This document shows, in pieces, positions 18,910-54,842 of a stretch of 57,390 nt of DNA; the stretch's first letter is position 1, and each line of letters begins with the position of its first letter. The stretch covers positions 1-57,390 of the forward strand of contig JBBTVF010000045.1 of assembly GCA_038063335.1 (NCBI GenBank). Reading direction: 5' to 3'. Under the pieces are notes generated by a model. It did not search any database, had not been told where the DNA came from, and was given only the letters and a program-made list of their open reading frames with translations. The position numbers and the translations under genes were made by a program. The DNA is from Patescibacteria group bacterium (GTDB lineage: Bacteria; Patescibacteriota; Minisyncoccia; UBA6257; UBA9933).

Positions 18910-18914
18910 AACTT

Positions 18915-19412
18915 TTAAACTTTTAATTTTTTCAACGCTTCTATCGTCGCCATCGCATTTGTTAACTTATTTTTAGTGCCGCCAAGGCATTTTGCGGTTG
19001 CGTCCCTGACTCCGACCAAAAGAAGCACAGTCCTAACCGAACCTCCGGCTTTTAATCCGTGACCCTCCTTTGCCGGTTTTATTAAAACTTTTGCGGCGCT
19101 GAATTTAGCTTCAATCTCATGCGGTATTGTTTTGCCTTTTAATTTCAGCGCGATTAAATGTTTTTTGGCGTCAGTTTTGGCTTTATCAACGGCTTGCATG
19201 ACATCCATCCCCTTGGCAATTCCTATGCCAACACTGCCTTTTTCATTTCCGATAACCACCGTTGCTCTGAATTTAAAACGTTTTCCGCCAGCCATAACTC
19301 TGGTAACACGCCGCAAATCAATAACCTTCTCCTTAAATTCAGAAGGCTGTCTCTTTATATCTCGCGATACTCTTGAAAATCTTTTTTCAGTTGTTTGTCC
19401 TTGTTGATTCAT
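18915..19412 (-). CDS. rpsE: ribosomal protein S5
   Basis: RVTRVMAGGKRFKFRATVVIGN. Confidence 0.95.
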   Translation of the reverse strand: MNQQGQTTEKRFSRVSRDIKRQPSEFKEKVIDLRRVTRVMAGGKRFKFRATVVIGNEKGSVGIGIAKGMDVMQAVDKAKTDAKKHLIALKLKGKTIPHEIEAKFSAAKVLIKPAKEGHGLKAGGSVRTVLLLVGVRDATAKCLGGTKNKLTNAMATIEALKKLKV

Positions 19413-19421
19413 TGTTTATGA

Positions 19422-19757
19422 TTAAATTTTTAATCCCGCTTTCCGCGCGGCATCGGCAATAACTTTAACGCGACCGTGATATTTATAATCACCCCTGTCA
19501 AAAATCGCGCTTTTTATTCCTTTTTCAGATGACTTTTTTCCAATAATTTCTCCCAATGATGCCGAAGCGTCTTTTGAAGAAACTTTTGACGCGCTAACCA
19601 ATGTTTTGCCGGTTGAATCATCAATTAATTGCGCGTAAATATAACGATTACTTTTAAAAATAGAAAATCTCGGCTTCTCCGGCGTTCCTTTAATTTTAGC
19701 GCGCACGCGCGTTTTTCTACGTTCTCTAATTTTATTTAATAATTTCTTTTTATTCAT
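19422..19757 (-). CDS. rplR: ribosomal protein L18
   Basis: [18 protein letters not shown]...[11 protein letters not shown]. Confidence 0.95.
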
Positions 19758-19905
19758 CCCTCACCCTTCAAAGATTTTATTATAAATTTTAATAAAATTT
19801 ATAATATATAATAATTGAAGTTTTTATTTATTGGTTTATTTATATTCTTTATTTTTATTATTAATCCCCGCCTTTCAAATTTTTTATCTTTGAAGGGTGA
19901 GGGAT
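19756..19905. mobile_element. F-family palindromic element F1 (putative MITE) at the rplF stop / rplR start
   Basis: ATCCCTCACCCTTCAAAGAT ... ATCTTTGAAGGGTGAGGGAT, 20/20 bp inverted termini. Near-identical to 32854-33003. Confidence 0.85.
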
Positions 19906-20450
19906 TATTTAGTCGCTCCGGCTGCTTTCTTACCTTCTTTTCTTTTTATTATTTCTCCTTGATATCTAATTCCTTTACCTTTATACGGTTCAGGCTTTTT
20001 AAAAGCTCTTATTTCAGCCGCCGTTTGTCCGACTAAAAATTTGTCAATTCCGGAAATTTTAATCGTATTTTTATCAACCACTATTTTTATTCCTTTTTGA
20101 GGAGCCACTTTAATAGGATGAGAAAAACCAAGATTCAACAATAAATTATTGCCGTCCATTGAAGCGCGGTAGCCGACTCCTTCAATTTCCAATATTTTTT
20201 CAAATCCTTCTTTCACTCCGATTATAGCATTATTCATCAACGCCCTCATAGTTCCCCAGTTGGCTTTTGATTGCTGAGATTCGTCCAAAATAGACACCAT
20301 AATCTTTTTATCTTGAATATCAACTTTAACGCCAGACATAATTTTTAATGAAAATTCCCCGTTTTTCCCCTTAAAATTAAAAACATCGCCGTTAATTTCA
20401 ACGTCAACATCCTCAGGTATAATTATTGGTCTTTTTCCTATTTTAGACAT
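19905..20450 (-). CDS. rplF: ribosomal protein L6
   Basis: MSKIGKRPIIIPEDVDV...; operon position. Confidence 0.95.
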   Translation of the reverse strand: MSKIGKRPIIIPEDVDVEINGDVFNFKGKNGEFSLKIMSGVKVDIQDKKIMVSILDESQQSKANWGTMRALMNNAIIGVKEGFEKILEIEGVGYRASMDGNNLLLNLGFSHPIKVAPQKGIKIVVDKNTIKISGIDKFLVGQTAAEIRAFKKPEPYKGKGIRYQGEIIKRKEGKKAAGATK

Positions 20451-20469
20451 ATTTTTTTAAACTTTTTTA

Positions 20470-20850
20470 TTACCAAATTTCAAACAGCGCCAATCCGCCT
20501 ATTTTCGCCTTTTTAGCTTCTTGACCGCCCATAATTCCTTTTGAAGTTGAAATTACCATTAATCCATAACCGTGCTTCACCGGCCTTATTTTTTCAAAAC
20601 CGATATAAATGCGGCGGGACGGTTTGCTGATTAATTTTATTCCGTTAATTGCCCCTTTATTCTCAACATATTTCAATTTAACATCAAAATAACGTTTGAT
20701 TTTTTGCCCTTTCTTTTCAAAATTCTCTATATAATTATTAGAAACTAAAATTTTCAAAATACCCTCATCAATTTTTGAATAAGGAATTTTTACATTTTCT
20801 TTCTTAACCGCCTGCGCATTTTTAAGTTGTGTCAGTAAATTAATATACAT
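20470..20850 (-). CDS. rpsH: ribosomal protein S8
   Basis: LTQLKNAQ... and the C-terminal GGLALFEIW-type end. Confidence 0.93.
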   Translation of the reverse strand: MYINLLTQLKNAQAVKKENVKIPYSKIDEGILKILVSNNYIENFEKKGQKIKRYFDVKLKYVENKGAINGIKLISKPSRRIYIGFEKIRPVKHGYGLMVISTSKGIMGGQEAKKAKIGGLALFEIW

Positions 20851-20855
20851 AAATA

Positions 20856-21041
20856 TTACCAGCTCGCTTTTTTAACGCCGGGTATTTCCCCCCTACTAGC
20901 CATTTCTCTGAAACAAATTCTACATAATCCAAAATCTCTAATATATCCTCTTTTTCTGCCACATTTAAAACAGCGAAGTACGCCTCGCGTTGAAAATTTC
21001 TGTTTCTTTTTTGCTCTTGCGATAACTGATGTTTTAGCCAT
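20856..21041 (-). CDS. rpsN: ribosomal protein S14, type Z (zinc form)
   Basis: 61 aa; CFKCGR...CRICFRE. Confidence 0.93.
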
Positions 21042-21570
21042 GTTTTTTCAATGGTACTCCTAATTTCCTGTACAATTCTATTGCTTCTTCTTTTATTTTA
21101 GCATTATTTACAATACTGATTTCCAATCCGAAGTCAAACTTCAAAAGCTCGGGGTTAATTTCCGGAAACACAACATTTTCTTTTAATCCGATTGTCAAAT
21201 TGCCGTTGCTGTCAATATTATTAAGGTTAATCCCCTTAAAATCCTTTACGCGAGGCAATGCTATTTTAACCAATCTTTCCAAGAAATCTCTCATTCGCTG
21301 GCGCCGCAAGGTTGCTTTCATTCCCACAACCTGTCCTTCCCTTGTTTTGAAGCCAGCAATTGATTTTTTAGCCGATGTTAACGCCGGCTTTTGTCCCGTT
21401 ATTGTGGCAAAATCCCTTATTATTTCCGGCAATATTTTTTCGGTAAAATTAGGCTGTTGACTCATTCTCCCAACTCCAACATTAATGACAATTTTTTCCA
21501 AACGCGGAACAGCTAAATCATTTTTACGTTCGGATTTTACTTTTGTTTTTTTAATAATTTTTTTATTCAT
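21034..21570 (-). CDS. rplE: ribosomal protein L5
   Basis: [12 protein letters not shown]...; operon position. Confidence 0.93.
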
Positions 21571-21582
21571 TTAATTAGCTTA

Positions 21583-21888
21583 TTAAATATTGGCTGAACA
21601 TCTTTTGCAAATTCTCGTCTTATTCCCTTTATCTATTTTATATCCGACTCTTGTTGTTTTTCCGCAAGATGAACAAAGAATCGCTGCGTTTGAAACATCA
21701 ATCGGCCTTGGAATGGAGATAATCTGTCCTTTTTCTCCTTGTTTCTTGGGACGAACATGCTTTTTAAAAATATTCAAATTCTCAACTAAAATTTTATTTT
21801 TAGTCGGAAAAACCTTTAAAACTTTGCCCGTTTTATTCTTATCTTTACCCGTCAATATTTTAATTGTATCGTTCTTTTTTATTTTCAT
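21583..21888 (-). CDS. rplX: ribosomal protein L24 (with CxxC...CxxC knuckle)
   Basis: [26 protein letters not shown] motif. The C-terminal part has CSSCG and CKRC. Confidence 0.93.
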
Positions 21889-22253
21889 ACTATTTCTTCC
21901 GCCATTGTAACAATTTTTTCAAATCCTTTTTCTTTTAATTCCCTTGGAACCGGACCGAAAATTCTTGTGGCTTTGGGTTCTTTTTTTTCATCAATCAACA
22001 CAACGGCATTTTCACTGAATCTGATGTAAGAGCCGTCACTGCGGCGCAAAGACTTTCTTTGCCGAACAATCACCACTCTCACAATATCTTTCTTTTTAAC
22101 GGCTTTTCTCGGCTCCGCTTCTTGAACAGATGCGACAACCACATCGCCTATTTCCGCATAATGACGTTTTGTCCCGCCAAGAATCCTAAAACAACGGACT
22201 ATTTTAGCGCCACTATTGTCTGCCACTTTTAAAATTGAACGTTCTTGTATCAT
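21885..22253 (-). CDS. rplN: ribosomal protein L14
   Basis: [17 protein letters not shown]. Confidence 0.96.
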
Positions 22254-22480
22254 ATAATTTTCTCAATTATTTTCCATCTTTTCTCTTTGCTCATCGGCCT
22301 TGTTTCTTCTATCACCACTTTATCTCCATTCTTATATTCATTTTTCTCGTCATGCGCCTTAAATCTTTCGGTAACTTTATAATATTTTTTGTAGCGCGGA
22401 TGCTGTTTAAGACGCGTTATCGCAATAACGCGCGTCTTGTCCATTTTATCCGATACGATTATGCCTTGTAATTTTCTCAT
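22250..22480 (-). CDS. rpsQ: ribosomal protein S17
   Basis: [15 protein letters not shown]...[16 protein letters not shown]. Confidence 0.93.
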
Positions 22481-22665
22481 TTGTTTATTATCGTTAATAT
22501 TCTCGCAATTGATTTTTTAACGTTTTTAATTTCTTTAATATTCTTGACTTTACCATAAAATAAATCAACTTTTAATTTCCTTAGTTTTCCCTGATATTCA
22601 GACAGATTTTTCTTAAGCTCCAATAACGACCAATTTTTCATTTGTTTAATTTCTTGTTTTTTCAT
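22477..22665 (-). CDS. rpmC: ribosomal protein L29
   Basis: 62 aa, helical, in the position between L16 and S17. Confidence 0.88.
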   Translation of the reverse strand: MKKQEIKQMKNWSLLELKKNLSEYQGKLRKLKVDLFYGKVKNIKEIKNVKKSIARILTIINK

Positions 22666-22807
22666 CCCTCACCCTTCAAAGATTGCTTGTAAATTTTATA
22701 AAAATTTACAAATTAAATCTTATGAATATTTAATTTATTTTATTTATATATAACATAAAAATATTTTATTTCCCCAAATTCTTCATTATCTTTGAAGGGT
22801 GAGGGAT
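22664..22807. mobile_element. F-family palindromic element F2 at the rplP stop / rpmC start
   Basis: Same 20-bp perfect termini. The interior resembles 24731-24875, including the hairpin CTTGTAAATTTT..AAATTTACAA. Confidence 0.85.
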
Positions 22808-23217
22808 TATTCTTCCACTATTCTTGTTTTAATCGGCAATTTATGGCCGGCCCTTCTCATGGCTTCTCTCGCTATTTCCTTGCTCACACCGTCCATTTCA
22901 AATAAAATCCTGCCTGGTCTTACCGGAAAAACATAATGGTCAACCGCCCCCTTACCGCCTCCCATCGTTACTTCCGGAGGCCTTTTTGTAATCGGTTTAT
23001 CGGGAAAAATTCTTATCCAAATTCTTCCTCCTCTTTTTGTAAAATGAGTGATCGCTTTCCTTGCGGCTTCTATCTGCCTTGAATTAATCCAGGCGCTTTC
23101 CATAGCTTGAATGCCAAAACTGCCGAAACTTAAATATATTCCTCTTGTTTCCGTTTGGCGTTTTCGCGACCTCCCCTTTTGCCATTTTCTATGTTTTACT
23201 TTTTTTGGCATTAACAT
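22807..23217 (-). CDS. rplP: ribosomal protein L16
   Basis: [16 protein letters not shown]. Confidence 0.95.
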
Positions 23218-23221
23218 ATTT

Positions 23222-23905
23222 TTATACTTTTAAATCTTTTTTATTAAATATCTCTCCTTTGTAAATCCATACTTTTACTCCCACTGTGCCAAAAGTGGTA
23301 AAAGCCGTGGCTTCACCGTAATCAATATCAGCTCTTAATGTTTGAAGCGGCAATCTGCCTTTTGCCAATTGTTCCGTTCTGGCAATTTCCGCTCCATCCA
23401 ATCTTCCGGACACTTTAATTTTCGCTCCTTTAACTTCTCTGTTTTGCGTTACCTGCTCAAGATATTTTTTAATTGTTCTCCTGAAAGGCATTCTTTTCTC
23501 TAAATCCCAAGCGATATTTTGAGCAATAATATTGGCTGAAATATCCGATCTTTTCAATTCTTCAATATTTAAACTTAAAGAAATTTTATTTTTATCGTCT
23601 TTTATTTCTCTTATTTTTTTCAAAGACGCTTCCAAGGCCTTCGTTAATTCTTCTATTCCCTTTCCTCCTCTGCCGATAATTAAACCAGGCCTTGCCGCCT
23701 TAACCGCAATTTTATATTTATTCCCCATTCTTTCTATCTCAACGCTGTCAATGCCGGCATTCTTAATTCTTTTATCAATAATTTTTCTAATTAAAACATC
23801 CTCTTCTAATAATTTTGCGAAATTAAATTTCTTCGGAAACCATCGAGATTTCCAATCCTTTGTTATTCCTATTCTAAATGATATTGGGTTAATTTTTTGA
23901 GCCAT
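23222..23905 (-). CDS. rpsC: ribosomal protein S3
   Basis: [14 protein letters not shown]...; KH domain. Confidence 0.95.
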
Positions 23906-23907
23906 AT

Positions 23908-24426
23908 TTATATTGATTTCCTTCTAAACATTCTTTTTGTAAAACCTATTTTTTCAACTGGTTTCACTTCCTTTATTATTTCTTCTTCTTTTGATTTTTC
24001 TTTTGCTTCAAATTTTTCTTTTTTGATTTTTTCCGCTACGCTTTTTTTGATTCTTTCCTGTTTGACTATTTTAAATCTCGGCTTTTTCGCCTTTTCAGAT
24101 TCAGCCAAAATTAAAGTGATGTGGCTTGTTTTCTTTTGAATCGGCGTGGCTCTTCCCTGCGCTCTCGGCATAAATCTTTTCAGCATCGGCCCCTGGTCAA
24201 CTCTTATTTCTTTGACAAATAAATTTTCCAATTGAATGTTTTTTTGCTTAGCATTGGCAATTGCCGAACGTAAAAGCTTTAAAATCGGTTCGCCTGCTTT
24301 TTTAGAATGCAACAAAAGCTGGGCTTCGGCTTCATTTGCCGATAATCCTTTAATCATATTGGCAACCAAACGCGTTTTACGCGGCGCCATTCTCAAATAA
24401 TTAAGTTTTGCTGTTGCTATATTCAT
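23908..24426 (-). CDS. rplV: ribosomal protein L22 (long Lys/Glu-rich C-terminal tail)
   Basis: AKLNYLRMAPRKTRLVANMIKG. Confidence 0.92.
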   Translation of the reverse strand: MNIATAKLNYLRMAPRKTRLVANMIKGLSANEAEAQLLLHSKKAGEPILKLLRSAIANAKQKNIQLENLFVKEIRVDQGPMLKRFMPRAQGRATPIQKKTSHITLILAESEKAKKPRFKIVKQERIKKSVAEKIKKEKFEAKEKSKEEEIIKEVKPVEKIGFTKRMFRRKSI

Positions 24427-24432
24427 AAACTT

Positions 24433-24732
24433 TTAAACTTTTTTATCCTCTGTTTTCTTTTCTAATTCCTTTTGCATTTTTCCGCCGTGTCTGATGAATT
24501 TTCTCGTTAAAGAGAATTCTCCTAGCCGATGGCCAATCATTTCTTCGGTTACTCTCACACTAATAAAATTCTTGCCATTATGAACGCCAAACGTAAAACC
24601 AACCATTTCTGGAGAAATTTCCGAATCGCGCGCCCAAGTTTTAATAATCGTCGGGTCGCCCGATTTCAATTTTGACATCTTTTTTAATAATTTTTGGTCA
24701 ACATAAGGACCTTTTTTTGAACTTCTACTCAT
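24433..24732 (-). CDS. rpsS: ribosomal protein S19
   Basis: [12 protein letters not shown]...GHRLGEF. Confidence 0.95.
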
Positions 24733-24875
24733 CCCTCACCCTTCAAAGATTGCTTGTAAATTTTTATAAAATTTACAAGTTAAACCTTATGAAGATTAAA
24801 TTAATTTATTTTATATATAACATAAATATTCTACCTCCCCCAACTCTTCTTAATTATCTTTGAAGGGTGAGGGAT
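24731..24875. mobile_element. F-family palindromic element F3 at the rplB stop / rpsS start
   Basis: Same 20-bp perfect termini. Confidence 0.85.
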
Positions 24876-25699
24876 TATTTTCTTCTTTTAACTATCATTT
24901 TATTGCTCCACTTCTTCTTATTCCTTGTTTTTCTTCCGCCGGTAATTTTACCCCATGCTGTTTTCGGCTTTCTTGTTCCACGCGGCTGTCTACCTTCGCC
25001 ACCGCCGTAAGGATGGTCGCAAGGATTCATCGCGGTTCCTCTAACTGTCGGCCGAATGCCCATTCCTCGCGAACGACCAGCTTTACCGATATTCGTCAAA
25101 CTCCATTCAGAATTGGAAACTTGTCCCAGAGAGGCAAAATTATCCCATTTTATCTTTCTTACTTCTCCCGAAGAAAGTTTTAAATTCGTCCAGCCGTTTT
25201 CCTGGGCTAAAACTTGCGCGTAAGATCCGGCCGATCTTGCCAACACCCCGCCCGCGCCTTTATTTAATTCAATATTGTAAATAGAATATCCAACTGGAAT
25301 ATTTTTCAACAATAAACGGTTTCCCTCTTTAAGTTCGGCGTTTTCCGAAACTAAAATCTCATCTCCGACTTTCATATTTTTATTGGCTAAAATATACGAA
25401 CGCTCTCCATCGCGATAAATAATTAAAGCAATAAAGGCCGTCCTGTACGGGTCGTATTCTATCGTTTCAATTTTAGCCGGAACATTCAGTTTATTTTGCT
25501 TGAAATCTATTATTCTGTAAAGTTTTTTATTGCCTCCGCCCTGGTGGCGAACCGTAATTCTTCCTTGATTATTTCTGCCCGAACAATTCGGCAATCTTTT
25601 TACAAGCGCCTTAAACGGTTCAACCATACTCAAAACTCCCCGATATGTCGGAACTGTCATATTTCGCCTTGATGGAGTTGTTGGTTTGTATTTCTTCAT
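24875..25699 (-). CDS. rplB: ribosomal protein L2
   Basis: MKKYKPTTPSRR start chosen. The track's 7 extra codons run into a heptamer repeat. GGGEGR..PRG motif present. Confidence 0.95.
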   Translation of the reverse strand: MKKYKPTTPSRRNMTVPTYRGVLSMVEPFKALVKRLPNCSGRNNQGRITVRHQGGGNKKLYRIIDFKQNKLNVPAKIETIEYDPYRTAFIALIIYRDGERSYILANKNMKVGDEILVSENAELKEGNRLLLKNIPVGYSIYNIELNKGAGGVLARSAGSYAQVLAQENGWTNLKLSSGEVRKIKWDNFASLGQVSNSEWSLTNIGKAGRSRGMGIRPTVRGTAMNPCDHPYGGGEGRQPRGTRKPKTAWGKITGGRKTRNKKKWSNKMIVKRRK

Positions 25700-25727
25700 G
25701 GAACATGGAACATGGAACATGAAACAT
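25697..25727. repeat. tandem heptamer CATGGAA x3 + CATGAAA + CAT (ATGTTCC on the mRNA strand) at the L2 start
   Basis: Read directly; four ATGs spaced 7 nt apart. Confidence 0.85.
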
Positions 25728-25764
25728 TGTTAATGATTCAAGCTTCATGCTTTATGATTTGTGA

Positions 25765-26175
25765 TTACGTGGGCATTACGTCAATTTTATGGCCTTCTTT
25801 TAACGTCACTATTGCTTTTTTATGTCCCGGGACCTTCCCCTTACTGCGCCCCAATGACTTAATTTTCCCTTTTTTATTAATTATATTCACCGATAAAACT
25901 TTCACTCCATAAATAGATTCTATCGCTTTTGCCACCTGCGGCTTATTGATTTTTTTATCAACCAAAAAAGCGTATTTTCTTAAATTAATCAAATGACCGA
26001 CTTTTTCGGTTATCCACGGATGTTTTATTTTCATTGCCTCCTGCGGATTAATAATCGCTTTTTCAACTTGCGCCGCAATTTGATTTTTTACCGATTCTGA
26101 TTTTTTTTCTCCCGACTTCACAGACAAATCTTTTTTTGATTGTGTTTTTTTAAAAATACCCATACTTTTAAACAT
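25765..26175 (-). CDS. rplW: ribosomal protein L23 (N-terminal extension)
   Basis: KYAFLVDKKINKPQVAKAIESIYGVKV. Confidence 0.9.
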   Translation of the reverse strand: MFKSMGIFKKTQSKKDLSVKSGEKKSESVKNQIAAQVEKAIINPQEAMKIKHPWITEKVGHLINLRKYAFLVDKKINKPQVAKAIESIYGVKVLSVNIINKKGKIKSLGRSKGKVPGHKKAIVTLKEGHKIDVMPT

Positions 26176-26797
26176 AATGCTTCTCTATCTCGCTTATCGC
26201 CTCTTTTTCAAAAATAATATTTTTATATTTAAGCAAATCATGGACATTTAATGATTGCGAACCAATAGCATTAACGTTTTTTATATTAGAAACGACTTTA
26301 TTTATATTGTTTTTTAAAGACGAAACCAAAAGAACGCTCTTTTTCCCGCCGAATAAATTATTTAAAAATTTTACCATTGCGGCTGTTTTAGCTTTTTTAA
26401 TGTCAAATTCAAATTTTTCAAAAATTTTTAAATCACCATCCTCCGCTTTCTTTGACAAAACGCTGAAAATAGCCAATCGGTTCATTTTTTTATTTATTTT
26501 TTTCGCAAATATCCTTTCTTTTGACGGACCAAATGTAACGCCGCCGCCTTTCCATATAGGTGAACGAATTGAACCATGCCTTGCCCGGCCGGTTCCTTTT
26601 TGGCGCCACGGTTTCTTGCCGCCGCCGGAAACTTCTCCCCTTCCCTTGGCATGCGCCAATGGCGAACGCTGATTGGCAATCTGCGCCAAAAGCGCCTGAT
26701 GTATTAAGGTAGAATTGAATTTAACTTTAAAAATCCGCTCTGGCAATTCCATCGTTTCCGTTTTTTTATTTTGTTTATCAAAAATATCTATAGTCAT
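26168..26797 (-). CDS. rplD: ribosomal protein L4
   Basis: GGGKKPWRQKGTGRARHGS. Confidence 0.95.
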   Translation of the reverse strand: MTIDIFDKQNKKTETMELPERIFKVKFNSTLIHQALLAQIANQRSPLAHAKGRGEVSGGGKKPWRQKGTGRARHGSIRSPIWKGGGVTFGPSKERIFAKKINKKMNRLAIFSVLSKKAEDGDLKIFEKFEFDIKKAKTAAMVKFLNNLFGGKKSVLLVSSLKNNINKVVSNIKNVNAIGSQSLNVHDLLKYKNIIFEKEAISEIEKHYV

Positions 26798-26829
26798 AAT
26801 TCATAATTCCTACTTCATACTTCTAATTT
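26795..26829. repeat. heptamer-periodic tract CATAATT CATAATT CCTACTT CATACTT CTAATTT across the rplC stop / rplD start
   Basis: Read directly; the same word family occurs at 9462-9482. Confidence 0.7.
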
Positions 26830-27418
26830 CCAATAATATCCCTTTCATCCCCGGAACCGCGCCTTTAAGCGTTAAAATATTGTTTTCCTTGTCAATTGAA
26901 ACAACTTTTAAATTTTTGACCGTCACTCTTTCTGTTCCCATATGACCAGCCATTCTTAATCCCGGCATAACTCTTTGCGGAGCCGTAGCACCGATTGAAC
27001 CCGGAGCCCTATGACGATTTTTTTGACCGTGTGTTTTTGGTCCGCCGGCAAATCCATGCCGCTTTACTCCTCCCTGAAATCCACGGCCCTTGTTCAAGCC
27101 GCCAACCTTCACTTTATCTCCTTCATTAAATTGTTCAACCGTAAAAACATCGCCAACTTTTAAGCTTTCCAACTCTGAAACCTTAAACTCTTTAAGGTGT
27201 CTAAAATTGCCCAAATCTTTTAAGTGACCTTTTTCCGGCTTGTTTATTTTTTTCTTTGTCGCGTCAAATCCAACCTGAGCCGCTTCATAGCCGTCTTTTT
27301 CTTTTGTCCTTATTTGCGTTATCGTTATCGGACCCGCTTGAATAAGCGTTACCGGAACAATTTTATCATCTTTCCAAATCTGGGACATTTTTAATTTTTT
27401 ACCCAATATGAATGCCAT
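26810..27418 (-). CDS. rplC: ribosomal protein L3
   Basis: GKKLKMSQIW...GRGFQGGVKRHGF. Confidence 0.95.
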   Translation of the reverse strand: MAFILGKKLKMSQIWKDDKIVPVTLIQAGPITITQIRTKEKDGYEAAQVGFDATKKKINKPEKGHLKDLGNFRHLKEFKVSELESLKVGDVFTVEQFNEGDKVKVGGLNKGRGFQGGVKRHGFAGGPKTHGQKNRHRAPGSIGATAPQRVMPGLRMAGHMGTERVTVKNLKVVSIDKENNILTLKGAVPGMKGILLEIRSMK

Positions 27419-27430
27419 AATAATTTTTAC

Positions 27431-27458
27431 AATAAAAACAGCCAGATTAGCCGGCTGC
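27431..27458 (-). terminator. terminator-like (attenuator?) hairpin in the rplC leader
   Basis: The minus strand reads CAGCCGG-ctaat-CTGGCTG followed by TTTTTATT, ~15 nt before the rplC ATG. Confidence 0.4.
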
Positions 27459-27510
27459 TTCGCAATTCCGTTATATTAAATAACGGTGGCTTAATCTGTA
27501 GAAAATATTT

Positions 27511-27532
27511 ATGTTAAATTAGAATTTAACAT
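27511..27532. promoter_or_regulatory. 22-bp perfect palindrome (operator-like or 5' hairpin)
   Basis: ATGTTAAATT-ag-AATTTAACAT, just downstream of the candidate rplC promoter. Confidence 0.4.
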
Positions 27533-27540
27533 TACCAATA

Positions 27541-27569
27541 AAGATAGCAAATGTGAAAATAAATGTCAA
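27541..27569 (-). promoter_or_regulatory. promoter candidate for rplC and downstream genes
   Basis: The minus strand reads TTGACA-17 nt-TATCTT. Confidence 0.45.
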
Positions 27570-27594
27570 TAATCTACTGGGACAACACGCGCTA

Positions 27595-27623
27595 TTGACA
27601 TTTCATAAAATTGGAGTTTAATT
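27595..27623 (+). promoter_or_regulatory. weak promoter candidate for ORF 27665-28123
   Basis: Consensus TTGACA, but only a poor -10 (TTAATT) at 17 nt. Back-to-back with the rplC -35 box. Confidence 0.3.
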
Positions 27624-27664
27624 AAATTCTAGTGAGCTAATTAACAAAAGAAAAAGGAGAGAAA

Positions 27665-28123
27665 ATGAGAAATATTTTAATTAAAGGCTCGGGTGATATA
27701 ACCGACAGCCAACAATTTTTTGATTTTGTCGTTCAAAAAGCGCAAAGTAATTATTATGTGGTTATTATTTGCGGAGGTGGAACAAAAATTAGCGCCGCGT
27801 TAAAAAAGGCTGGTTATGCTGTGGAGTTTGACCAACTCGGACGTCGCATCACAAAGACATGGGAAGAAATGATGGTTATATGGGACATCTTAGAACACGA
27901 GGAAAAAAGGCTCCGAGATAAGTTTGTGGAGAAAAATATTGTCATACTGCAACCAATTCTCTATGCCGGCTCAGTTTTATGCCCAATTAATGGAGACGAT
28001 CTCGTTAAGGCCTATTACCTTGGGCGATTTAATGAGATATGCGTTCTTACAAAAAAAGAGCGTGTTGAAAAGAAAAGAGTTATTTTTGAAGAATATCCAA
28101 AAGTTAAAGTTATCGGCATTTAA
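27665..28123 (+). CDS. minimal amino-acid-kinase-fold-like protein (island gene A)
   Basis: 152 aa behind a strong AAGGAGAG RBS. ILIKGSGD, VVIICGGGT and PINGDDLVKA resemble the K-GG / hGGG / N-D-D motifs of the AAK fold, but the protein is far shorter than typical members. Confidence 0.45.
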   Translation: MRNILIKGSGDITDSQQFFDFVVQKAQSNYYVVIICGGGTKISAALKKAGYAVEFDQLGRRITKTWEEMMVIWDILEHEEKRLRDKFVEKNIVILQPILYAGSVLCPINGDDLVKAYYLGRFNEICVLTKKERVEKKRVIFEEYPKVKVIGI

Positions 28124-28162
28124 AAAACACTTATTAGAACAAGGAAGGAGGTGATTAGATAT

Positions 28163-28198
28163 ATACCCCACATATACTTACTGTCGGGGTATTTTTTT
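28163..28198 (+). terminator. intrinsic terminator between the convergent island genes
   Basis: ATACCCC-16 nt-GGGGTAT followed by TTTTTTT. Confidence 0.65.
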
Positions 28199-28247
28199 AA
28201 AAAAATTCGGAAAACTCTATTAAAAATGAAAATGTTTTAACCCAATT

Positions 28248-28550
28248 TTATTCAAATTTAAAATTACCAAAATCGTAGCCGTTATCTCTTAAATAAAAAA
28301 GGATATCCTTATCTTCACATTCATGAGCATCATGAATTGCTCCAGCTTCTATTTCGTGTTTATATATCCTTTCCAAATAATCTGGTTTATTTTTGAGAAT
28401 TTCAAACGCTTCGGTATTCAACATTATCCCACCCGCTGGATCCATTTTTGCCACTGATTCTTTTGGCACAAAGTTATGCGTATAGACATTATGCCCTTTG
28501 TAAGTATCTATTTTATTAAATTGAGCGTTGGAATAATTTTCTTTTTTCAT
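28248..28550 (-). CDS. hypothetical protein (island gene B)
   Basis: 100-aa ORF with no family recognised; contains HEIEAGAIHDAHE. Confidence 0.4.
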   Translation of the reverse strand: MKKENYSNAQFNKIDTYKGHNVYTHNFVPKESVAKMDPAGGIMLNTEAFEILKNKPDYLERIYKHEIEAGAIHDAHECEDKDILFYLRDNGYDFGNFKFE

Positions 28551-28630
28551 AATAAAATTGAATTAAAATTTCGCCCAACTTGTTATTATATAAAGTATTT
28601 CCGCATATAATACAACAAATAATCATAAAT

Positions 28631-28658
28631 AAAAAGTCCCGCTATGATGGGACTTTTT
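28631..28658 (-). terminator. hairpin abutting the rpsJ stop codon (terminator-like)
   Basis: AAAAAGTCCC-8 nt-GGGACTTTTT (10-bp stem) next to the stop, followed by ATTTAT on the minus strand. Confidence 0.55.
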
Positions 28659-28659
28659 A

Positions 28660-29010
28660 TTACTTCATCTTTATTTCTATATCCACTCCTGCCGGAAGAT
28701 TTAAGCCGCCAAAAGATTCAATAATTTTCTGATTAGGATTAAGAATATCCACCAATCGTTTATGAACGCGAAGTTCAAACTGCTCGCGGCTAGTTTTATG
28801 GACAAAAGTTGAACGATTGACGGTATAACGTTTTATTTCCGTTGGTAGAGGAATCGGTCCGATAACTTCGGCGCCATTACGCAAAGCCATCTCAATAATT
28901 TGCTTGACAGAATTGTCAATCAGCCGATGATCATAGGACCTTATCCTTAACCTTATTTTTGATTGTAAAGATTCTTCTTTTGCCATAATTGTTGAAATTT
29001 TTAAGCTCAT
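28660..29010 (-). CDS. rpsJ: ribosomal protein S10
   Basis: KIRLRIRSYDHRLIDNSVKQI. The real start may be the internal MAKEES at 28986. Confidence 0.93.
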   Translation of the reverse strand: MSLKISTIMAKEESLQSKIRLRIRSYDHRLIDNSVKQIIEMALRNGAEVIGPIPLPTEIKRYTVNRSTFVHKTSREQFELRVHKRLVDILNPNQKIIESFGGLNLPAGVDIEIKMK

Positions 29011-29042
29011 ATTGCAGAGAAAAAAATTTCACTACAATTATG

Positions 29043-29094
29043 AGCACCCCGCCTTGGCAAAGTAAAGGTTTTGTAATCCCGCCTCTGGCGTGAA
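29043..29094. repeat. GC-rich mini-palindrome cluster in the tuf-rpsJ spacer
   Basis: AGCACCCCGCCTTGGC ... ATCCCGCCTCTGGCGTG; shares AGCACCCCGCC with 56363-56385. Confidence 0.5.
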
Positions 29095-29103
29095 CAAAGC
29101 CCT

Positions 29104-30303
29104 TTACTTAATTATCTTCGTCACCGCTCCCGCTCCCACAGTTTTACCTCCTTCACGAATAGCAAACCTTTGTTTTTCTTCAAGAGCCACTGGAGCAATT
29201 AATTTAACGTTGAGTTTCACGGTGTCGCCAGGCATAACCATTTCCATTCCTTCAGGTAAAAACGCTTCCCCAGTAACATCAGTCGTTCTGATGTAGAATT
29301 GCGGCTTGTATCCCTTAAAGAACGGAGTGTGGCGTCCGCCTTCTTCCTTGCTTAAAATATAAACTTCTGCTTCAAATTCAGTGTGCGGAGTAACGCTTCC
29401 GATTTTTGCCAAAACTTGTCCGCGTTCCACATCTTCTTTTTTAAGTCCGCGAAGCAAAACGCCGACGTTGTCTCCAGCCCGTCCTTCGTCAAGAAGTTTC
29501 TTAAACATTTCAATGCCGGTGACTACGGTTTTTGCAGTTGGTTTTATTCCAATAATTTCAATTTCATCATTAACTTTAACTATTCCTCTTTCAATTCTTC
29601 CCGTAACAACCGTACCGCGACCTTCAATTGAAAACACGTCTTCAACCGGCATTAAAAACGGCTTGTCGGTTTCGCGAACTGGCTCTGGAATAAAATCATC
29701 AAGAGCTTTAAGTAAATCCAATATCGGCTTAGCCGCTTCATCATCAGCCGAATTCGCAACTAAAGCCTTCACAGCCGAACCGCGGATAATTGGTGTTGTA
29801 TCGCCGGGGAATTGATACTTTTTCAAAAGTTCTCTTACTTCGGCTTCAACCAAATCAATAAGCTCCGGGTCGTCAACCATATCTGTTTTGTTCAAGAAAA
29901 CGACAATCGCCGGAACGCCGACTTGGCGCGCCAACAAAATGTGTTCGCGAGTCTGAGGCATCGGACCGTCAGCCGCGGAAACGACTAAAATCGCTCCATC
30001 CATTTGAGCGGCTCCGGTAATCATGTTTTTAATATAATCTGCGTGTCCCGGACAATCAACGTGCGCGTAATGCCTTTTTTCTGACTCATATTCGGAGTGG
30101 TGAATGGCAATGGTAATACCTCTCGCCTTTTCCTCAGGAGCATTGTCAATTTGGTCAATCGTTTCCTCTTTTTCGATAAGACCTTTTAATTTAAGGATGT
30201 GCGTCATCGCGGCAGTTAAAGTAGTTTTGCCGTGGTCAACGTGCCCAATCGTGCCGACATTCAAATGCGGCTTATTTCTTTCAAATTTTGCTTTTTCAGC
30301 CAT
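29104..30303 (-). CDS. tuf: elongation factor Tu
   Basis: [22 protein letters not shown]. Confidence 0.98.
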
Positions 30304-30314
30304 AATAATTTAAG

Positions 30315-30413
30315 TTAAAAGTTTATAAAGTTGAAAGTTATAAAGTTTAACTTTAAAAACTTTATGAACTTTATAACTTTACGAACCTTATAACTTTATG
30401 AACTTATTTATTT
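30315..30413. repeat. array of AACTTTATAACTTT words (3 direct ~17-nt units plus inverted copies) in the tuf leader
   Basis: ATGAACTTTATAACTTT / ACGAACCTTATAACTTT / ATGAACTTATTTATTT, and inverted AAAGTTATAAAGTT. Confidence 0.7.
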
Positions 30414-30445
30414 GCGACTTTTTATTTATTTTAATGACAATTAAT

Positions 30446-30474
30446 ATGATAGCCAATCAATTGCCACGTGTCAA
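30446..30474 (-). promoter_or_regulatory. promoter candidate for tuf
   Basis: The minus strand reads TTGACA-17 nt-TATCAT, just after the rplQ stop. Confidence 0.5.
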
Positions 30475-30481
30475 TCCCCCT

Positions 30482-30832
30482 TTACACAAACTCAATTATC
30501 GCCATCTTGGCGGCATCATTCTTTCTGACTTTTGCCAATTTGATTATTCTCAAATATCCCCCTTTTCTTTCGGTATATCGCGGCGCGATTTGATAATACA
30601 ATTTTTGTCCCGCTTTATTGCTTAATCTTGATAAAATAATCCTTAAAGACGCCACGCTTTGTTTCTTGGCAAGCGTGACTAATTTTTCCGTTGCCGATTT
30701 AATTTCTTTAGCTTTCGCTTCCGTAGTTTCAATTTTTTCCTTAATGATTAAATTGGCGATTAAACTTTTTAAAAGAGCCCGGCGCTGACCCCTTGCTCTA
30801 TGAAATTTTCTTCCCTTTTTAAGATGCTTCAC
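30482..30832 (-). CDS. rplQ: ribosomal protein L17 (GTG start created at the element boundary)
   Basis: (M)KHLKKGRKFHRARGQRRALL matches the L17 N-terminus. The GTG uses the terminal G of element E3. Confidence 0.9.
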   Translation of the reverse strand: MKHLKKGRKFHRARGQRRALLKSLIANLIIKEKIETTEAKAKEIKSATEKLVTLAKKQSVASLRIILSRLSNKAGQKLYYQIAPRYTERKGGYLRIIKLAKVRKNDAAKMAIIEFV

Positions 30833-30952
30833 CCCCACACCATAACGAGTTTATATCTATTACAATATTATATTTAATATGATAATAAAATTTCACTCTT
30901 ATTTTTATACTATTATTAATTTATTCTCCCCACAACTCGTTTGGTGTGGGGG
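30832..30952. mobile_element. E-family palindromic element E3 (121 bp) between rpoA and rplQ
   Basis: CCCCCACACCATAACGAGTT ... AACTCGTTTGGTGTGGGGG termini, AT-rich interior, direct TTCA/TTCA flanks. Confidence 0.85.
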
Positions 30953-30956
30953 TTCA

Positions 30957-31742
30957 TTATTTTTTCTTTTTCTTTTTTTCTTCTTTTTCCTTGACCGCTT
31001 TTTTTCCCTTTTTTCCGGCAAATAAAGTTTTCTCCGATTCAATCTCTTTAACTTCAATCAGCACCACTTTTTCAATATGGTCTTTTAAAATATTCGCGGA
31101 TTTATGAAGCGCTTTTGACGGCGTTATACTTCCATCCGTCTTAATAAAAATTCTTAACCTGTTATAATCCGTTCTTTCTCCAACGCGCATATTCTCAACG
31201 ACAAAATTCACGCTGATAATCGGACTAAAAAACGAATCAATGGCAATCACGCCCACCGGCAATTTATCGGCTTTTCTATTCTCTGCCGCCATATACCCCA
31301 ATCCTTTTTCAACGGTTAATTCCATTTCAATTTCGGCATTTTTTCCGGTTAATGAAAGAATATGAGCGGAAGAACTGACTATTTCAACTTCTGGATTAAC
31401 TTCAATGTCTCGGGCTAAAACTTTTTTCTCCCCTTTCGCCTTTAAAGAAAGAACTTGTGGTTCATCGGAATAAAGCTTAAAGCGAATTTTTTTAAGATTT
31501 AAAATAATTTCTACAATATCCTCTTTTACGCCCGCTATGGTTGAAAATTCATGTTTTACGCCCTTAATTTTTATCTGAGTGATGGCGGCGCCGGGCAAAG
31601 AAGACAAAAGCGCTCTTCGCAAAGCATTGCCCAAAGTGAGGCCGTAACCGGCATAAAGCCCCTCAACTTCAAAAACTCCCTCAACGTTTGTTTCCGAAAC
31701 TTTTTTAATTTTTACTGTTTCGCTAAGATATTGGTATTGCAT
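30957..31742 (-). CDS. rpoA: RNA polymerase alpha subunit, N-terminal domain only plus a Lys-rich tail
   Basis: LGNALRRALLSSLPGAAI and the rest of the alpha-NTD. The protein ends at 261 aa in ...KEKEEKKKKKK. Confidence 0.92.
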   Translation of the reverse strand: MQYQYLSETVKIKKVSETNVEGVFEVEGLYAGYGLTLGNALRRALLSSLPGAAITQIKIKGVKHEFSTIAGVKEDIVEIILNLKKIRFKLYSDEPQVLSLKAKGEKKVLARDIEVNPEVEIVSSSAHILSLTGKNAEIEMELTVEKGLGYMAAENRKADKLPVGVIAIDSFFSPIISVNFVVENMRVGERTDYNRLRIFIKTDGSITPSKALHKSANILKDHIEKVVLIEVKEIESEKTLFAGKKGKKAVKEKEEKKKKKK

Positions 31743-31747
31743 AATTT

Positions 31748-32371
31748 TTATCTAGAATAATAATCCACAACCAAATTTATATCAAATAATAATTCTTCTA
31801 AAATGCTTGTTGGCAATGATTTTATTTTTGCCTCCAATTTATCGCCGTCAACTTGAAACCATTCGGGCGCGTCGTGTTTTTTAATAATATTCTGCAAATC
31901 TTTAAAAATCAATAGATTTTTAGATAATGGATTTATTGATATAACATCACCTGCTTTTACCAAATACGAAGGAATGGTTACTTTTTTATTGTTGACGAAA
32001 ATATGGCCGTGGTTCACTAATTGTCTGGCAATAATTCTTGATGCCGCCAATCTAATCCTAAAAGCCGCGTTATCAAGACGGCGTTCCAAAAGAACGATAA
32101 TTCTCTGGCTTGGCAATCCTTTTTTCATTATTTCTTTCACGATTTTTTTCAATTGCGATTCTTTTAAGCCGTAGATTATCTTCATTTTTTGCTTTTCAAG
32201 AAGCTGTTGGCTGTATTCCGAAGCTGATTTGCGGCGACGACTCTTGCCGTGCATGCCCGGTTTATAAGGACGCCTAATCATCGCGCATTTTGGCGAATCA
32301 CAACGCTCGGCTTTTAAACCAAGCTTAACCCCCAACGCGCGTTCTTTTTTTTCTTTGGATTTTAACAACAT
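31748..32371 (-). CDS. rpsD: ribosomal protein S4
   Basis: RLDNAAFRIRLAASRIIARQLVNHGHI (S4 domain). Confidence 0.95.
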   Translation of the reverse strand: MLLKSKEKKERALGVKLGLKAERCDSPKCAMIRRPYKPGMHGKSRRRKSASEYSQQLLEKQKMKIIYGLKESQLKKIVKEIMKKGLPSQRIIVLLERRLDNAAFRIRLAASRIIARQLVNHGHIFVNNKKVTIPSYLVKAGDVISINPLSKNLLIFKDLQNIIKKHDAPEWFQVDGDKLEAKIKSLPTSILEELLFDINLVVDYYSR

Positions 32372-32390
32372 AACTTTTAAACTTTTTATA

Positions 32391-32855
32391 TTATACTCTT
32401 CTCTTTTTTGGCGGACGCGGACCGTTGTGCGGAATCGGCGTCACGTCTTTTATTGATAAAATGCTGAATCCCTGACCCGCTAAAGATTTCAAAGCGGAAT
32501 CTCTGGCGCTACCAACTCCTTTCATCACCACTTCAATTTCGGAAAAACCGAATTTCTTTAATTTTTCAGAGATAGCGGCTACCATTTTTGAAACCGCAAA
32601 CGGCGTGGCCTTTTTAGGCCCTGAAAAGCCCAAAGAGCCGGCGGAAATCCACGCAACCACATTGCCTTTTTTATCGGTTGCCGTAAGCATTGTGTTGTTA
32701 TAGCTAAAATTAACGTAAATCACGCCAATGCCTATTTTCCCAACCCCTTGTCCGCTTTTTTTGACGGAAGATTTTTTTACCATCGTTTCTTCCAATTTCT
32801 TGCCTTCTTCCAAAATATCTTTTTCAGTTTTTTCTATAACTTTTTTTTGTCCCAT
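32391..32855 (-). CDS. rpsK: ribosomal protein S11
   Basis: NNTMLTATDKKGNVVAWISAGSLGFSG. Confidence 0.95.
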   Translation of the reverse strand: MGQKKVIEKTEKDILEEGKKLEETMVKKSSVKKSGQGVGKIGIGVIYVNFSYNNTMLTATDKKGNVVAWISAGSLGFSGPKKATPFAVSKMVAAISEKLKKFGFSEIEVVMKGVGSARDSALKSLAGQGFSILSIKDVTPIPHNGPRPPKKRRV

Positions 32856-33003
32856 CCCTCACCCTTCAAAGATTTTATTATAAATTTTAATAAAATTTAT
32901 AATATAGAATAATTGAAGTTTTTATTTATTGGTTTATTTATATTCTTTATTTTTATTATTTATCCCTGCCTTCCAGATTTTTTATCTTTGAAGGGTGAGG
33001 GAT
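32854..33003. mobile_element. F-family palindromic element F4 at the rpsM stop / rpsK start
   Basis: Same 20-bp perfect termini. Differs from 19756-19905 at only ~6 positions. Confidence 0.85.
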
Positions 33004-33386: not shown

Positions 33387-33413
33387 AACTTTAAAACTTT
33401 TAAACTTTTTAAT

Positions 33414-43586: not shown

Positions 43587-43654
43587 AAATAGTGTTCGCG
43601 AATAATGCTAATTATTTATTCGCATTATTAAATTTTAATTCGCATTATTCGTGA
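43587..43654. repeat. ATTCGC-rich spacer element (H family, copy 2) between ftsZ and nrdJ
   Basis: AAATAGTGTTCGCGAATAATGCTAATTATTTATTCGCATTATT...ATTCGCATTATTCGTGATTA fills the spacer from stop to start. Confidence 0.7.
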
Positions 43655-44839: not shown

Positions 44840-44977
44840 CCCTCACCTTTCGATGATTTTATTTATTTTTATATAAAAATAAATATTAATCAATCGAATT
44901 ATGTTAATTTATTTATATTTCTCATCCCATGTCCTCCAATTATAATTTTTAAAAATTATCCTCGAAGGGTGAGGGAT
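44838..44977. mobile_element. F-family element F5 (divergent) upstream of the ftsZ start
   Basis: ATCCCTCACCTTTCGATGAT ... ATCCTCGAAGGGTGAGGGAT (18/20 pairable). The interior is unrelated and holds two perfect AT palindromes. Confidence 0.75.
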
Positions 44978-54817: not shown

Positions 54818-54842
54818 TTTAAACTTTGAAACTTTTAAACTT

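Follow-up and report, generated by a model that had tools for sequence, protein, structure and literature searches.

Palindromic repeats that bridge stop and start codons at cistron junctions of Patescibacteria operons

The Correia (NEMIS) repeats of Neisseria, which are transposable elements of the miniature inverted-repeat class (MITEs), generate a TA duplication, show no codon-precise placement, occur in both orientations and are confined to Neisseria. REP/BIME repeats are units of 20-40 nt with a GTAG head and a link to the RAYT transposase, which neither abut nor re-create start codons, and the Rickettsia palindromic elements (RPE) enter coding sequences in frame and end up in the translated host protein. 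Translational coupling by hairpins at the ribosome-binding site (RBS) is also known, as in the coat-replicase pair of phage MS2 and in rpmI-rplT, where the end of the upstream cistron pairs with the downstream start site and masks it until upstream translation opens it. In the ribosome shunt of the pararetroviruses cauliflower mosaic virus (CaMV) and rice tungro bacilliform virus (RTBV), a short open reading frame (ORF) ends before a stable helix, the take-off site, and translation resumes just 3' of it, at the landing site (PMC5902531). The repeated element described here, found in a stretch of 57,390 nt from a Patescibacteria group bacterium (contig JBBTVF010000045.1; the whole stretch is referred to as the window), resembles the Correia, REP, ERIC and RPE families in kind but lacks the features that define them, such as the TA duplication, the GTAG head and the in-frame translation. 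Its unusual features are the codon-precise bridging of a stop and a start codon, the regeneration of the start codon, a fixed orientation and the phylum-wide conservation of its terminus. We regard it as a Patescibacteria-restricted, non-autonomous palindromic element, gained and lost over time, whose RNA helix would make translation of the downstream gene depend on ribosomes from the upstream one, a reading for which we judge the chances to be about even.

Five full copies of the element (family 1, copies c1 to c5) are present in the window, all on the minus strand and between cistrons. (In what follows, three-digit labels such as L011, L061 or L173 denote genomic stretches of relatives, and two-digit L and S names denote ribosomal proteins.) Copy c1 (19756-19905, 150 nt) separates rplF (L6, 19905-20450) from rplR (L18, 19422-19757), with its 5' arm, in the mRNA sense, at 19886-19905 and its 3' arm at 19756-19775; the last A of the rplF TAA is a base of the element, and the rplR ATG consists of the final two element bases plus position 19755. 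Copy c2 (22664-22807, 144 nt; 5' arm 22788-22807, 3' arm 22664-22683) lies between rplP (L16) and rpmC (L29), c3 (24731-24875, 145 nt; arms 24856-24875 and 24731-24750) between rplB (L2) and rpsS (S19), and c4 (32854-33003, 150 nt; arms 32984-33003 and 32854-32873) between rpsM (S13) and rpsK (S11). These four copies had been listed, with coordinates that proved exact, in a preliminary description of the window, and Pfam assignments bear out the ribosomal-protein flanks that it gave, L6|L18, L16|L29, L2|S19 and S13|S11, all on the minus strand. The count of four was nevertheless too low: the four are real, but a fifth copy, a diverged relative (c6) and two copies of a sister family had been overlooked. 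The fifth, c5 (44838-44977, 140 nt), has 2-3 substitutions in its arms and lies between ftsA (44984-46249) and ftsZ (43655-44839); its 3' arm is flush with the ftsZ ATG, and the ftsA TAA is found 6 nt upstream of its 5' arm.

All eight arms of c1-c4 are the exact 20-mer ATCCCTCACCCTTCAAAGAT or its reverse complement, as previously claimed, with 0 matches expected from dinucleotide-preserving shuffles, and these four copies are the sole perfect 20-nt inverted repeats at a spacing of 104-110 nt in the window. Such terminal inverted repeats, perfect in these four copies, are those of a MITE. On the mRNA strand, each of the four junctions reads TAA-TCCCTC...GAGGGA-TG, and removal of the element leaves TAATG in every case; both statements had been made before, and the second follows by plain arithmetic. 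The division into two subfamilies also stands, with c1 and c4 differing at 5 of 150 positions (96.7% identity; about six differences had been claimed) and c2 and c3 being 87% identical.

In the predicted fold, the arms form a terminal helix of 20 bp (P1) with a duplex energy of -35.3 kcal/mol, which includes the AU of the AUG and the GGGUGAGGG tract. Folding of the whole elements gives z-scores from -5.6 to -9.0 (c1, -7.8 with a minimum free energy of -40.3 kcal/mol; c2, -8.0; c3, -8.9; c4, -9.0; c5, -5.6). A covariance model, trained on 29 copies of the AT-rich type (see below) and run on both strands of the window, gives minus-strand scores of 89-114 bits for the five copies, with plus-strand scores 26-36 bits lower (101.6 versus 67.7 bits for c1, 107.6 versus 74.1 for c2, 113.9 versus 80.5 for c3 and 89.3 versus 63.6 for c5). 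This difference, together with a second hairpin (P2) that is always 3'-proximal, agrees with the earlier claim that all copies have the same orientation. P2 comprises 13 bp and is AU-rich in c1 (19778-19806); it comprises 12 bp in c2 (22686-22712) and c3 (24753-24779), 13 bp in c4 (32876-32904) and 11 bp in c5 (44860-44885), all on the minus strand, and ends 2 nt ahead of the 3' arm in every window copy. In c5 the sequence of P2 is unlike that of the other copies and the structure is retained.

Each window copy contains, in addition, a degenerate internal version of its 3' arm (pseudo-3'-arm) that can pair with the 5' arm as an alternative hairpin, P1'. In c1 this pseudo-arm lies at 19864-19879 (minus strand, as are all of the following; TTTGAAAGGCGGGGAT in the mRNA sense), with a duplex energy of -15.1 kcal/mol (z -5.3) and a fold of the first 75 nt of -13.7 kcal/mol. 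Its counterparts are at 22771-22785 in c2 (TGAAGAATTTGGGGA, z -3.7), 24836-24849 in c3 (GAAGAGTTGGGGGA, z -4.8), 32962-32977 in c4 (TCTGGAAGGCAGGGAT, z -9.3) and 44924-44939 in c5 (TTGGAGGACATGGGAT, z -5.1), and P1' is predicted from the first 75 nt of every window copy at -10 to -20 kcal/mol. A sigma-70 scan of the copies for internal promoters returned one weak site, in c1, without enrichment, and the idea of the element as a promoter carrier was dropped.

The family is limited neither to the genome of the window nor to ribosomal operons. One genome per species (185,579 species) was scanned with a degenerate form of the 20-nt terminus, which returned 92 stretches. The terminus is almost confined to Patescibacteria assemblies, with labels that include Saccharibacteria, Jorgensen-, Wolfe-, Lipton- and Brennerbacteria, Minisyncoccia and Paceibacterota; one match, OY970216.1, is an 804-kb complete chromosome, and a genome may hold up to about 17 loci. 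Other phyla yielded only a few single arms, at about chance expectation, and the solo arms in high-GC genomes outside the Patescibacteria were set aside as chance matches. Viral contigs contained 0 terminus matches and thus give no sign of a phage vector. In 80 ribosomal-protein-operon loci from metagenomes (L16 57-76% identical to that of the window, the closest being only 76% identical), which doubled as the negative control for the covariance model, the element was found in 0 of 80 by either a regular expression or the model. Rfam returned nothing at the gathering score over the window, nothing at E up to 5 over 19700-25000 (c1-c3) and, for three GC-richer-type loci, nothing at E up to 1, and no description of the element was found in the literature searched, in keeping with the earlier remark that no such family was known to its author.

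When arms were paired at 4 or fewer mismatches, 91 elements of 85-178 nt were obtained. In 85 of these, and on exactly one side, the last two bases and the base that follows form the ATG (in one case GTG) start of an ORF of 40 codons or more; the other 6 lie away from a start codon. Fifty-six of the 85 are flush with the stop codon of an upstream ORF of at least 50 codons (51 with a TAA that shares its last A with the element, 5 with a TGA or TAG), and the stop is 4-12 nt upstream in a further 8, so that it falls within 12 nt in 64 of the 85. The exact abutment on the stop that the preliminary description gave for its four copies does not extend to the whole family: 29 of the 85 copies are not flush, and twelve copies carry ATG-initiated repeats of 4-8 nt. 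The wider proposal of that description, of a MITE-like, multi-copy and non-autonomous element tied to stop/start junctions, is supported by the 91-element survey: it had named as counter-evidence copies scattered at random sites in both orientations, and the TAA/ATG context and the orientation hold across 86 copies from other genomes.

All 85 orientable copies, read towards the ATG, have a common plan of 5' arm, variable interior, P2, short spacer and 3' arm. The outer 10 bp of P1 are almost invariant, and inner positions 14, 15 and 17 show compensatory exchanges of A-U for G-C or C-G. Despite unrelated sequences between subfamilies (TTGTAAATTT..AAATTTACAA, CGCTTC..GAAGCG and ATCCAGCACATAAA..TTATGTGCTGGAT, for example), P2 stops short of the 3' arm by 0-5 nt in 77 of 85 elements, and in 80 of 85 the interior is more stable over its 3'-proximal than over its 5'-proximal 40 nt (p = 5e-13). 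For P2, each sequence was folded separately; a MAFFT alignment, which is not structure-aware, was set aside. The genes downstream are ordinary housekeeping genes, often essential, and represent 107 Pfam families among 80 proteins, including S11, L18, L29, S15, S2, type IV pilus ATPases, NusB, tRNA synthetases, RpoC, FtsH, MreB and ftsZ. The element is thus a conserved and easily recognised marker of cistron junctions within the most essential operons (ribosomal proteins, ftsAZ, rpoC, secretion genes).

Compared with the Correia repeats, the family is similar in its length (about 100-155 nt), non-coding nature, terminal inverted repeats of at least 20 bp, high copy number, co-transcription, long hairpins and proximity to gene starts. 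It differs in that the flanks are TA...G and never TA...TA, in the re-created start codon and fixed orientation described above, and in the absence of any sequence similarity. With REP/BIME and ERIC it shares the occurrence of repeated intra-operon palindromes just after stop codons, which can affect the mRNA stability or translation of their neighbours; unlike REP/BIME, its members are 99-178 nt long with ATCCCTC termini and lack the GTAG. As with RPE, a palindromic mobile element in a reduced genome survives where essential frames are unbroken (a sister copy inside fpg, described below, behaves likewise), but family-1 copies sit between genes. The sequestered start sites of MS2 and rpmI-rplT are unique and locus-specific, in contrast to the portable, repeated module found here, with its invariant arms and a dispensable loop of about 100 nt. 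The likeness to the viral shunt lies in the geometry, with one helix that has stop and AUG at its foot, and amounts to no more than a functional analogy, since the shunt is eukaryotic and involves a cap-dependent, scanning 40S subunit on a viral leader, whereas reinitiation here would involve bacterial 70S or 30S particles, two full-length cellular genes and a repeated element. Integron attC sites were rejected as a match: the termini lack the GTT core (R''/R' = RYYYAAC / GTTRRRY), and the flanks are ribosomal-protein genes in universal order.

The interiors of the elements fall into two types by GC content, a GC-richer one (0.24 or more, n=52, or 50 under the slightly different classification used for the frame count) and an AT-rich one (n=33), to which all window copies belong. 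In the GC-richer type, the frame that ends at the TGA of the 3' arm (GGG TGA GGG ATG) is free of stop codons over the last 66 nt in 42 of 50 elements, compared with 17 and 7 of 50 for the other two frames; the AT-rich type has no long open frame ending there. Correspondingly, an ATG-initiated upstream ORF (uORF) is present in 48 of 52 GC-richer and 3 of 33 AT-rich elements. In the 46 GC-richer cases tabulated it has a median of 27 codons, starts near position 47 in A/U-rich sequence and ends at the arm TGA, three bases ahead of the downstream ATG (39), at a TGA overlapping the ATG (5) or at an upstream arm TGA (2). The uORF peptides are unlike between subfamilies, which indicates that the act of translation, and not its product, matters. 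The window copies contain no ATG-initiated ORF that ends at the arm TGA (ORFs of 5-8 codons occur in c2 and c3 only), and the uORF is not a feature of their type. The internal degenerate copy of the 3' arm that is complementary to the 5' arm has the opposite distribution, being present in 88% of AT-rich and 2% of GC-richer elements; in the AT-rich type it lies about 16 nt into the interior, with a mean duplex energy of -14 kcal/mol (z -5).

Patescibacteria make up a large share of bacterial diversity and have tiny genomes that are barely tractable experimentally, and little is understood of the ways in which their translation is initiated and balanced. In the window, a GGAGG-type Shine-Dalgarno sequence is missing from most genes, whose leaders are A/U-rich, so that the accessibility of the start codon should matter and free ribosomes should be unable to use an AUG locked in P1. 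As in RBS sequestration, the predicted fold puts start codon and purine tract in a stable helix, the other strand of which is within reach of a terminating ribosome. From this arrangement, both the formation of the helix in vivo and the gating of translation are inferred. The final bases of the element (...GAGGGA, then TG) re-create the downstream start codon, and its first base usually abuts the upstream stop. The two invariant 20-nt arms would pair in the operon mRNA into a helix of about -35 kcal/mol, at the foot of which the UAA would lie on one strand and the AUG, with the adjacent GGGUGA purine tract, on the other; the start codon would thereby be closed to free ribosomes. From what is established on ribosome footprints and on the helicase activity of ribosomes, a ribosome whose A site holds a stop codon extends over about 9-10 further nt, here the outer half of the 5' arm. 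On termination at the helix foot it would thus cover and melt this part of the arm and free the adjacent AUG and the tract before it while the inner half of the helix holds the ends together, and the downstream essential gene would be translated only in step with the upstream one, by enforced coupling or shunt-like reinitiation.

The two types would reach this end in different ways. In the AT-rich type, the internal arm copy would capture the 5' arm as P1' and leave the AUG transiently open; in the GC-richer type, a uORF of about 27 codons would start in the unstructured loop, read through the 3' arm and stop at the UGA three bases before the AUG. As both of these predicted features bear on the opening of the helix, they strengthen the idea of a reinitiation gate, and as two distinct ways to open or bypass the same helix they offer the best comparative support for a translational role. 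A more far-reaching version, to which we give clearly less than even weight, is that of a mobile 'translational coupler' that can be dropped between any two cistrons, since it re-creates the start codon and brings its own ribosome hand-over across a 20-bp helix. The hand-over would consist of termination at the helix foot, with the alternative hairpin as an aid in one clade and the uORF as a relay in another, and the whole would be a bacterial counterpart of viral shunting, peculiar to the Patescibacteria with their small genomes and scarcity of Shine-Dalgarno sequences. Were gating true, the element would amount to a portable coupling device and a natural experiment on reinitiation across RNA structure.

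Several observations weigh against a translational gate. In 21 of the 85 copies, the upstream stop is farther than 12 nt away or absent. Across the 85 elements, the presence of a uORF is uncorrelated with the lack of an abutting stop, and the notion of the uORF as a stand-in for a missing stop was rejected on these grounds; since the non-abutting AT-rich copies are also without a uORF, coupling cannot be the whole story. The flush abutment could be a by-product of the insertion mechanism and not of selection, and a perfect 20-bp helix is also an ideal substrate for RNase III. As regards mobility, the flanking repeats of family 1 range from 0/2 to 8 nt, which is atypical of a transposase, and no autonomous partner was found: arm pairs set 200-3000 nt apart, sought in about 0.7 Mb of flanking DNA, enclose no gene, and a single variant of 298 nt was all that this range yielded. 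Nor is there a transposase among the 30 ORFs scanned in the window, in line with the earlier statement on this point.

The helix length leads directly to the first alternative, in which RNase III or another double-strand nuclease cuts P1, the element leaves the transcript and the mRNA splits, the downstream piece beginning with a short GGGUGAGGGAUG leader; the insertion would then be harmless or would set the relative stabilities of the two mRNAs. With 20 perfect base pairs, the helix reaches the length of an RNase III substrate, about two turns of unbroken duplex; related hairpins occur in the leader of the 23S rRNA, a usual site of RNase III action, and other palindromic spacer families are found at ribosomal-protein junctions of other Patescibacteria. 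The Correia elements of Neisseria are cut by RNase III when transcribed. Processing is furthermore independent of a nearby upstream stop and would cover the 21 non-abutting copies. On the other hand, cleavage within the stem would sever the conserved uORF of the GC-richer type from its stop codon, and processing leaves the flush stop in 56 of 85 copies and the alternative partner of the 5' arm unexplained, and we consider it unlikely as the role of the element.

The hairpins of the 23S leader deserve a separate description. The 5' end of the 23S rRNA gene lies at about position 599 on the minus strand (window 1-599), and its leader (600-1130) is packed with palindromes. Among these is c6 (816-960), the diverged relative of family 1, with arms ATCCTGTCACCCTTGAAAGAT and ATCTTTCAAGGGTACGGGAT, about 220 nt upstream of the 23S 5' end and away from any start codon; its strand is ambiguous, with covariance scores of 48.4 bits on the minus and 46.1 bits on the plus strand. 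Two mini-hairpins of a second palindromic (sister) family, with arms CCCCCACACCAAACGAG and CTCGTT(A)TGGTGTGGGGG, flank the leader at 1091-1135 and 633-667. No 16S gene is present anywhere in the 57-kb window, so that the rRNA genes appear to be unlinked. Nor was a 16S 3' end present in the genomic stretches of the relatives.

The occupancy of individual junctions differs among genomes whose ribosomal proteins are 88-99% identical to those of the window. The L16|L29 junction is filled in the window and in L061 and empty in L011 (TAATTTTTTATG), while L23|L2 is filled in L011 and empty in L061 (TAAAAATATG). Empty orthologous junctions of the kind that the preliminary description had proposed to look for therefore exist, and their alternation with filled ones among close relatives indicates that the element is gained and lost. 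The S13|S11 junction is filled in five divergent lineages, with unrelated interiors, and is empty or different in L092, L020 and L034, the last of which retains a remnant spacer, a decaying form. Three close relatives have three unrelated interiors at S13|S11, and at L6|L18 the copy of the window is of the c4 type and those of L011 and L026 are of the c2 type; such an exchange of interiors at one junction suggests re-insertion or conversion between copies. Half-elements are seen as three solo 5' arms (L006, L056 and L063), directly followed by the ATG in L006 and L063, and five arms-only mini-hairpins are nested within full elements.

These comparisons bear on a second alternative, that of an ancient, vertically inherited cis-regulatory RNA at each junction, with the likeness between copies maintained by functional constraint and gene conversion. 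The filled state of S13|S11 in five divergent lineages, the invariance of the outer 10 bp of the arms across distant genomes and the differences between the interiors of close relatives at one junction are as this explanation predicts. However, filled and empty junctions alternate among relatives at about 90-97% protein identity without phylogenetic order, the occupied junctions vary widely between genomes and precede genes of 107 Pfam families, and the element is absent from the 80 other ribosomal-protein-operon loci. Nested insertions, as well as a recent insertion of a sister family within one population, also argue against vertical descent, which we consider very improbable.

In the closest relatives the empty junctions read TAA-N4-6-ATG, and elsewhere they are mostly TAA-N1-6-ATG or an ATGA overlap; TAATG itself makes up about 2% of ORF ends. 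It follows that the flush stop/start geometry is a property of filled junctions and does not go back to a TAATG target, and the targeting of TAATG that had been suggested for the window copies is not supported. In 61 of the 85 family-1 copies, the two ends have nothing in common but the palindromic AT, which may be a duplication or part of the repeat. Twelve copies have direct repeats of 4-8 nt that begin with the downstream ATG (ATGAA in seven, and ATGAG, ATGGA, ATGGGA, ATGA and ATGAATAA), and nine of these (all except L062, L078:4545 and L089:4542) keep both a stop adjoining the 5' arm and the ATG, as would be expected after insertion into an ATGA or an 8-nt overlap. The L14|L24 junction provides an example, being GTATGAAA when empty and GTATGA-element-ATGAAG in L078. 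Target duplications of a single fixed length were rejected, as none of the 2-, 3- and 4-bp models fits all family-1 copies, and the range from 0/2 to 8 nt does not fit a transposase with a fixed duplication. Family-1 insertions may reflect selection on rare events, or copying guided by microhomology at stop and start codons.

The sister families, by contrast with family 1, behave as ordinary transposons with a 4-bp duplication (TGAA, TGAA and TTTA in the three cases below). The first copy in the window (30832-30952, minus strand; arms CCCCCACACCAAACGAGT and ACTCGTTATGGTGTGGGGG) lies between rpoA and rplQ (L17), with TGAA on both flanks. Its removal restores a TAATG overlap, TAATGAAG; the present start codon of L17 is a GTG in which the last G of the element is followed by TG. 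The covariance model detects this family weakly (34 bits, E 2e-4 for this copy; arms CCCCCACACC.../...GGTGTGGGGG). A short, 66-nt copy (38354-38425, minus strand) is inserted and read in frame in the linker of fpg, with TTTA on both flanks. A third family, with arms CCCCGTTAGAAGTC and GACTTCTAACGGGG, is found in the ATGAA overlap of L14|L24. It occurs in strains of the window's own population, which was located by an exact L16 match in Hainich groundwater, wells H41, H51 and H52. In the H41 strains, which have the same L16 protein as the window, the junction is filled (L177:5696-5827, L178:5553-5684 and L179:3058-3189), with TGAA on both flanks and a re-created GTG start; in the window (21885-21888) and in the H51 and H52 strains it is empty. 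This near-isogenic pair is direct evidence of recent mobility of a related family in the Hainich population, and it illustrates the rule by which the start codon is restored by the last base of an inserted element. Family-1 copies are filled in all Hainich strains, and no strain polymorphism of family 1 was seen there.

The third alternative builds on this behaviour and views family 1 as a purely selfish MITE that inserts at or next to start codons and survives only where both essential ORFs stay intact; the surviving insertions would be those in which the last A plus TG re-make the ATG and the stop is kept, and the helix, P2 and the pseudo-arm would be transposition signals or relics of nested copies. 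The element is indeed multi-copy, gained and lost, and represented by subfamilies, nested copies and decaying half-copies, and contigs break at its copies. The sister families with their ordinary 4-bp duplications, the near-isogenic insertion into an ATGAA overlap that re-created a GTG, and seven family-1 copies with perfect TGAN duplications agree with this explanation, and the in-frame sister copy in fpg indicates that insertion is not confined to junctions. Yet ordinary intergenic DNA should tolerate insertions better, and no more than 6 of the 91 copies are found elsewhere than at a start codon; 51 copies are flush with a TAA without a duplication beyond the palindromic AT. Also difficult to explain without selection on the RNA are the stop-free frame of the uORF and, likewise, the persistence of pseudo-arms rich in G where the interior has a GC content of about 12%, and no autonomous element with these termini was found in the roughly 0.7 Mb of flanking DNA or in viral contigs. 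We consider a purely selfish nature rather unlikely. If it did apply, it would show a mobile element invading essential, overlapping genes by rebuilding their stop and start codons.

The element also has consequences for assembly and annotation. It explains contig breaks, as seen at copies in L007, L018, L043 and L066, for instance, and gene callers should expect it. In L061:2016-3931 (assembly CAYOSD01), no S19 gene lies between L2 and L22; the element occupies its place, and the L2 ORF has 397 codons. The element may explain this absence, which could be an assembly collapse or the product of recombination between two element copies. The L23|L2 junction is a hot spot of variation: the spacer of the window strain (25720-25765; L173:7453-7558) contains about 65 nt of additional sequence, which includes three CATGTTC repeats, that of an H41 strain (L177:1879-1921) is 2 nt only, and L011 holds a family-1 element.

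Palindromic spacers unrelated to family 1 were noted in other genomes. In L106, eight ribosomal-protein junctions contain such spacers of about 80-120 nt, and in L026 and L061 others of about 75-215 nt are found at S17|L14, L14|L24, L18|S5 and SecY|Adk; the types seen include GCCATAAGC..GCTTACAGC and GTATCGATACGAATATAC. The invasion of ribosomal-protein operons by hairpins seems to be general in the phylum.

Three further features of the window were observed. The S10 operon is interrupted by an 829-nt gap (27419-28247) between L3 and an ORF given the provisional label S10 (28248-28550); the S10 domain itself is assigned by Pfam to 28660-29010, not to that ORF. In the gap lies a plus-strand ORF of 152 aa (27665-28123), which has a good AGGAG site and for which no Pfam match is recorded. 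Another palindromic motif, centred on TTCGCGAATAATGCTAAT and perhaps an operator, is found at 43582-43668 and upstream of 38168 and 51623, where it precedes a ribonucleotide reductase gene, pyrG and another gene. Finally, the motif AAAGTTTAAAAGTT, often in the form of tandem 8-mers, stands directly against the ATG of hisS, L15, L22, S4, S13 and another gene (5053-5082, 18910-18931, 24428-24441, 32372-32385, 33387-33408 and 54822-54843, all on the minus strand). With 26 matches at 2 or fewer mismatches in the window, against 6.3 expected, it may represent an A/U-rich initiation signal of the lineage.

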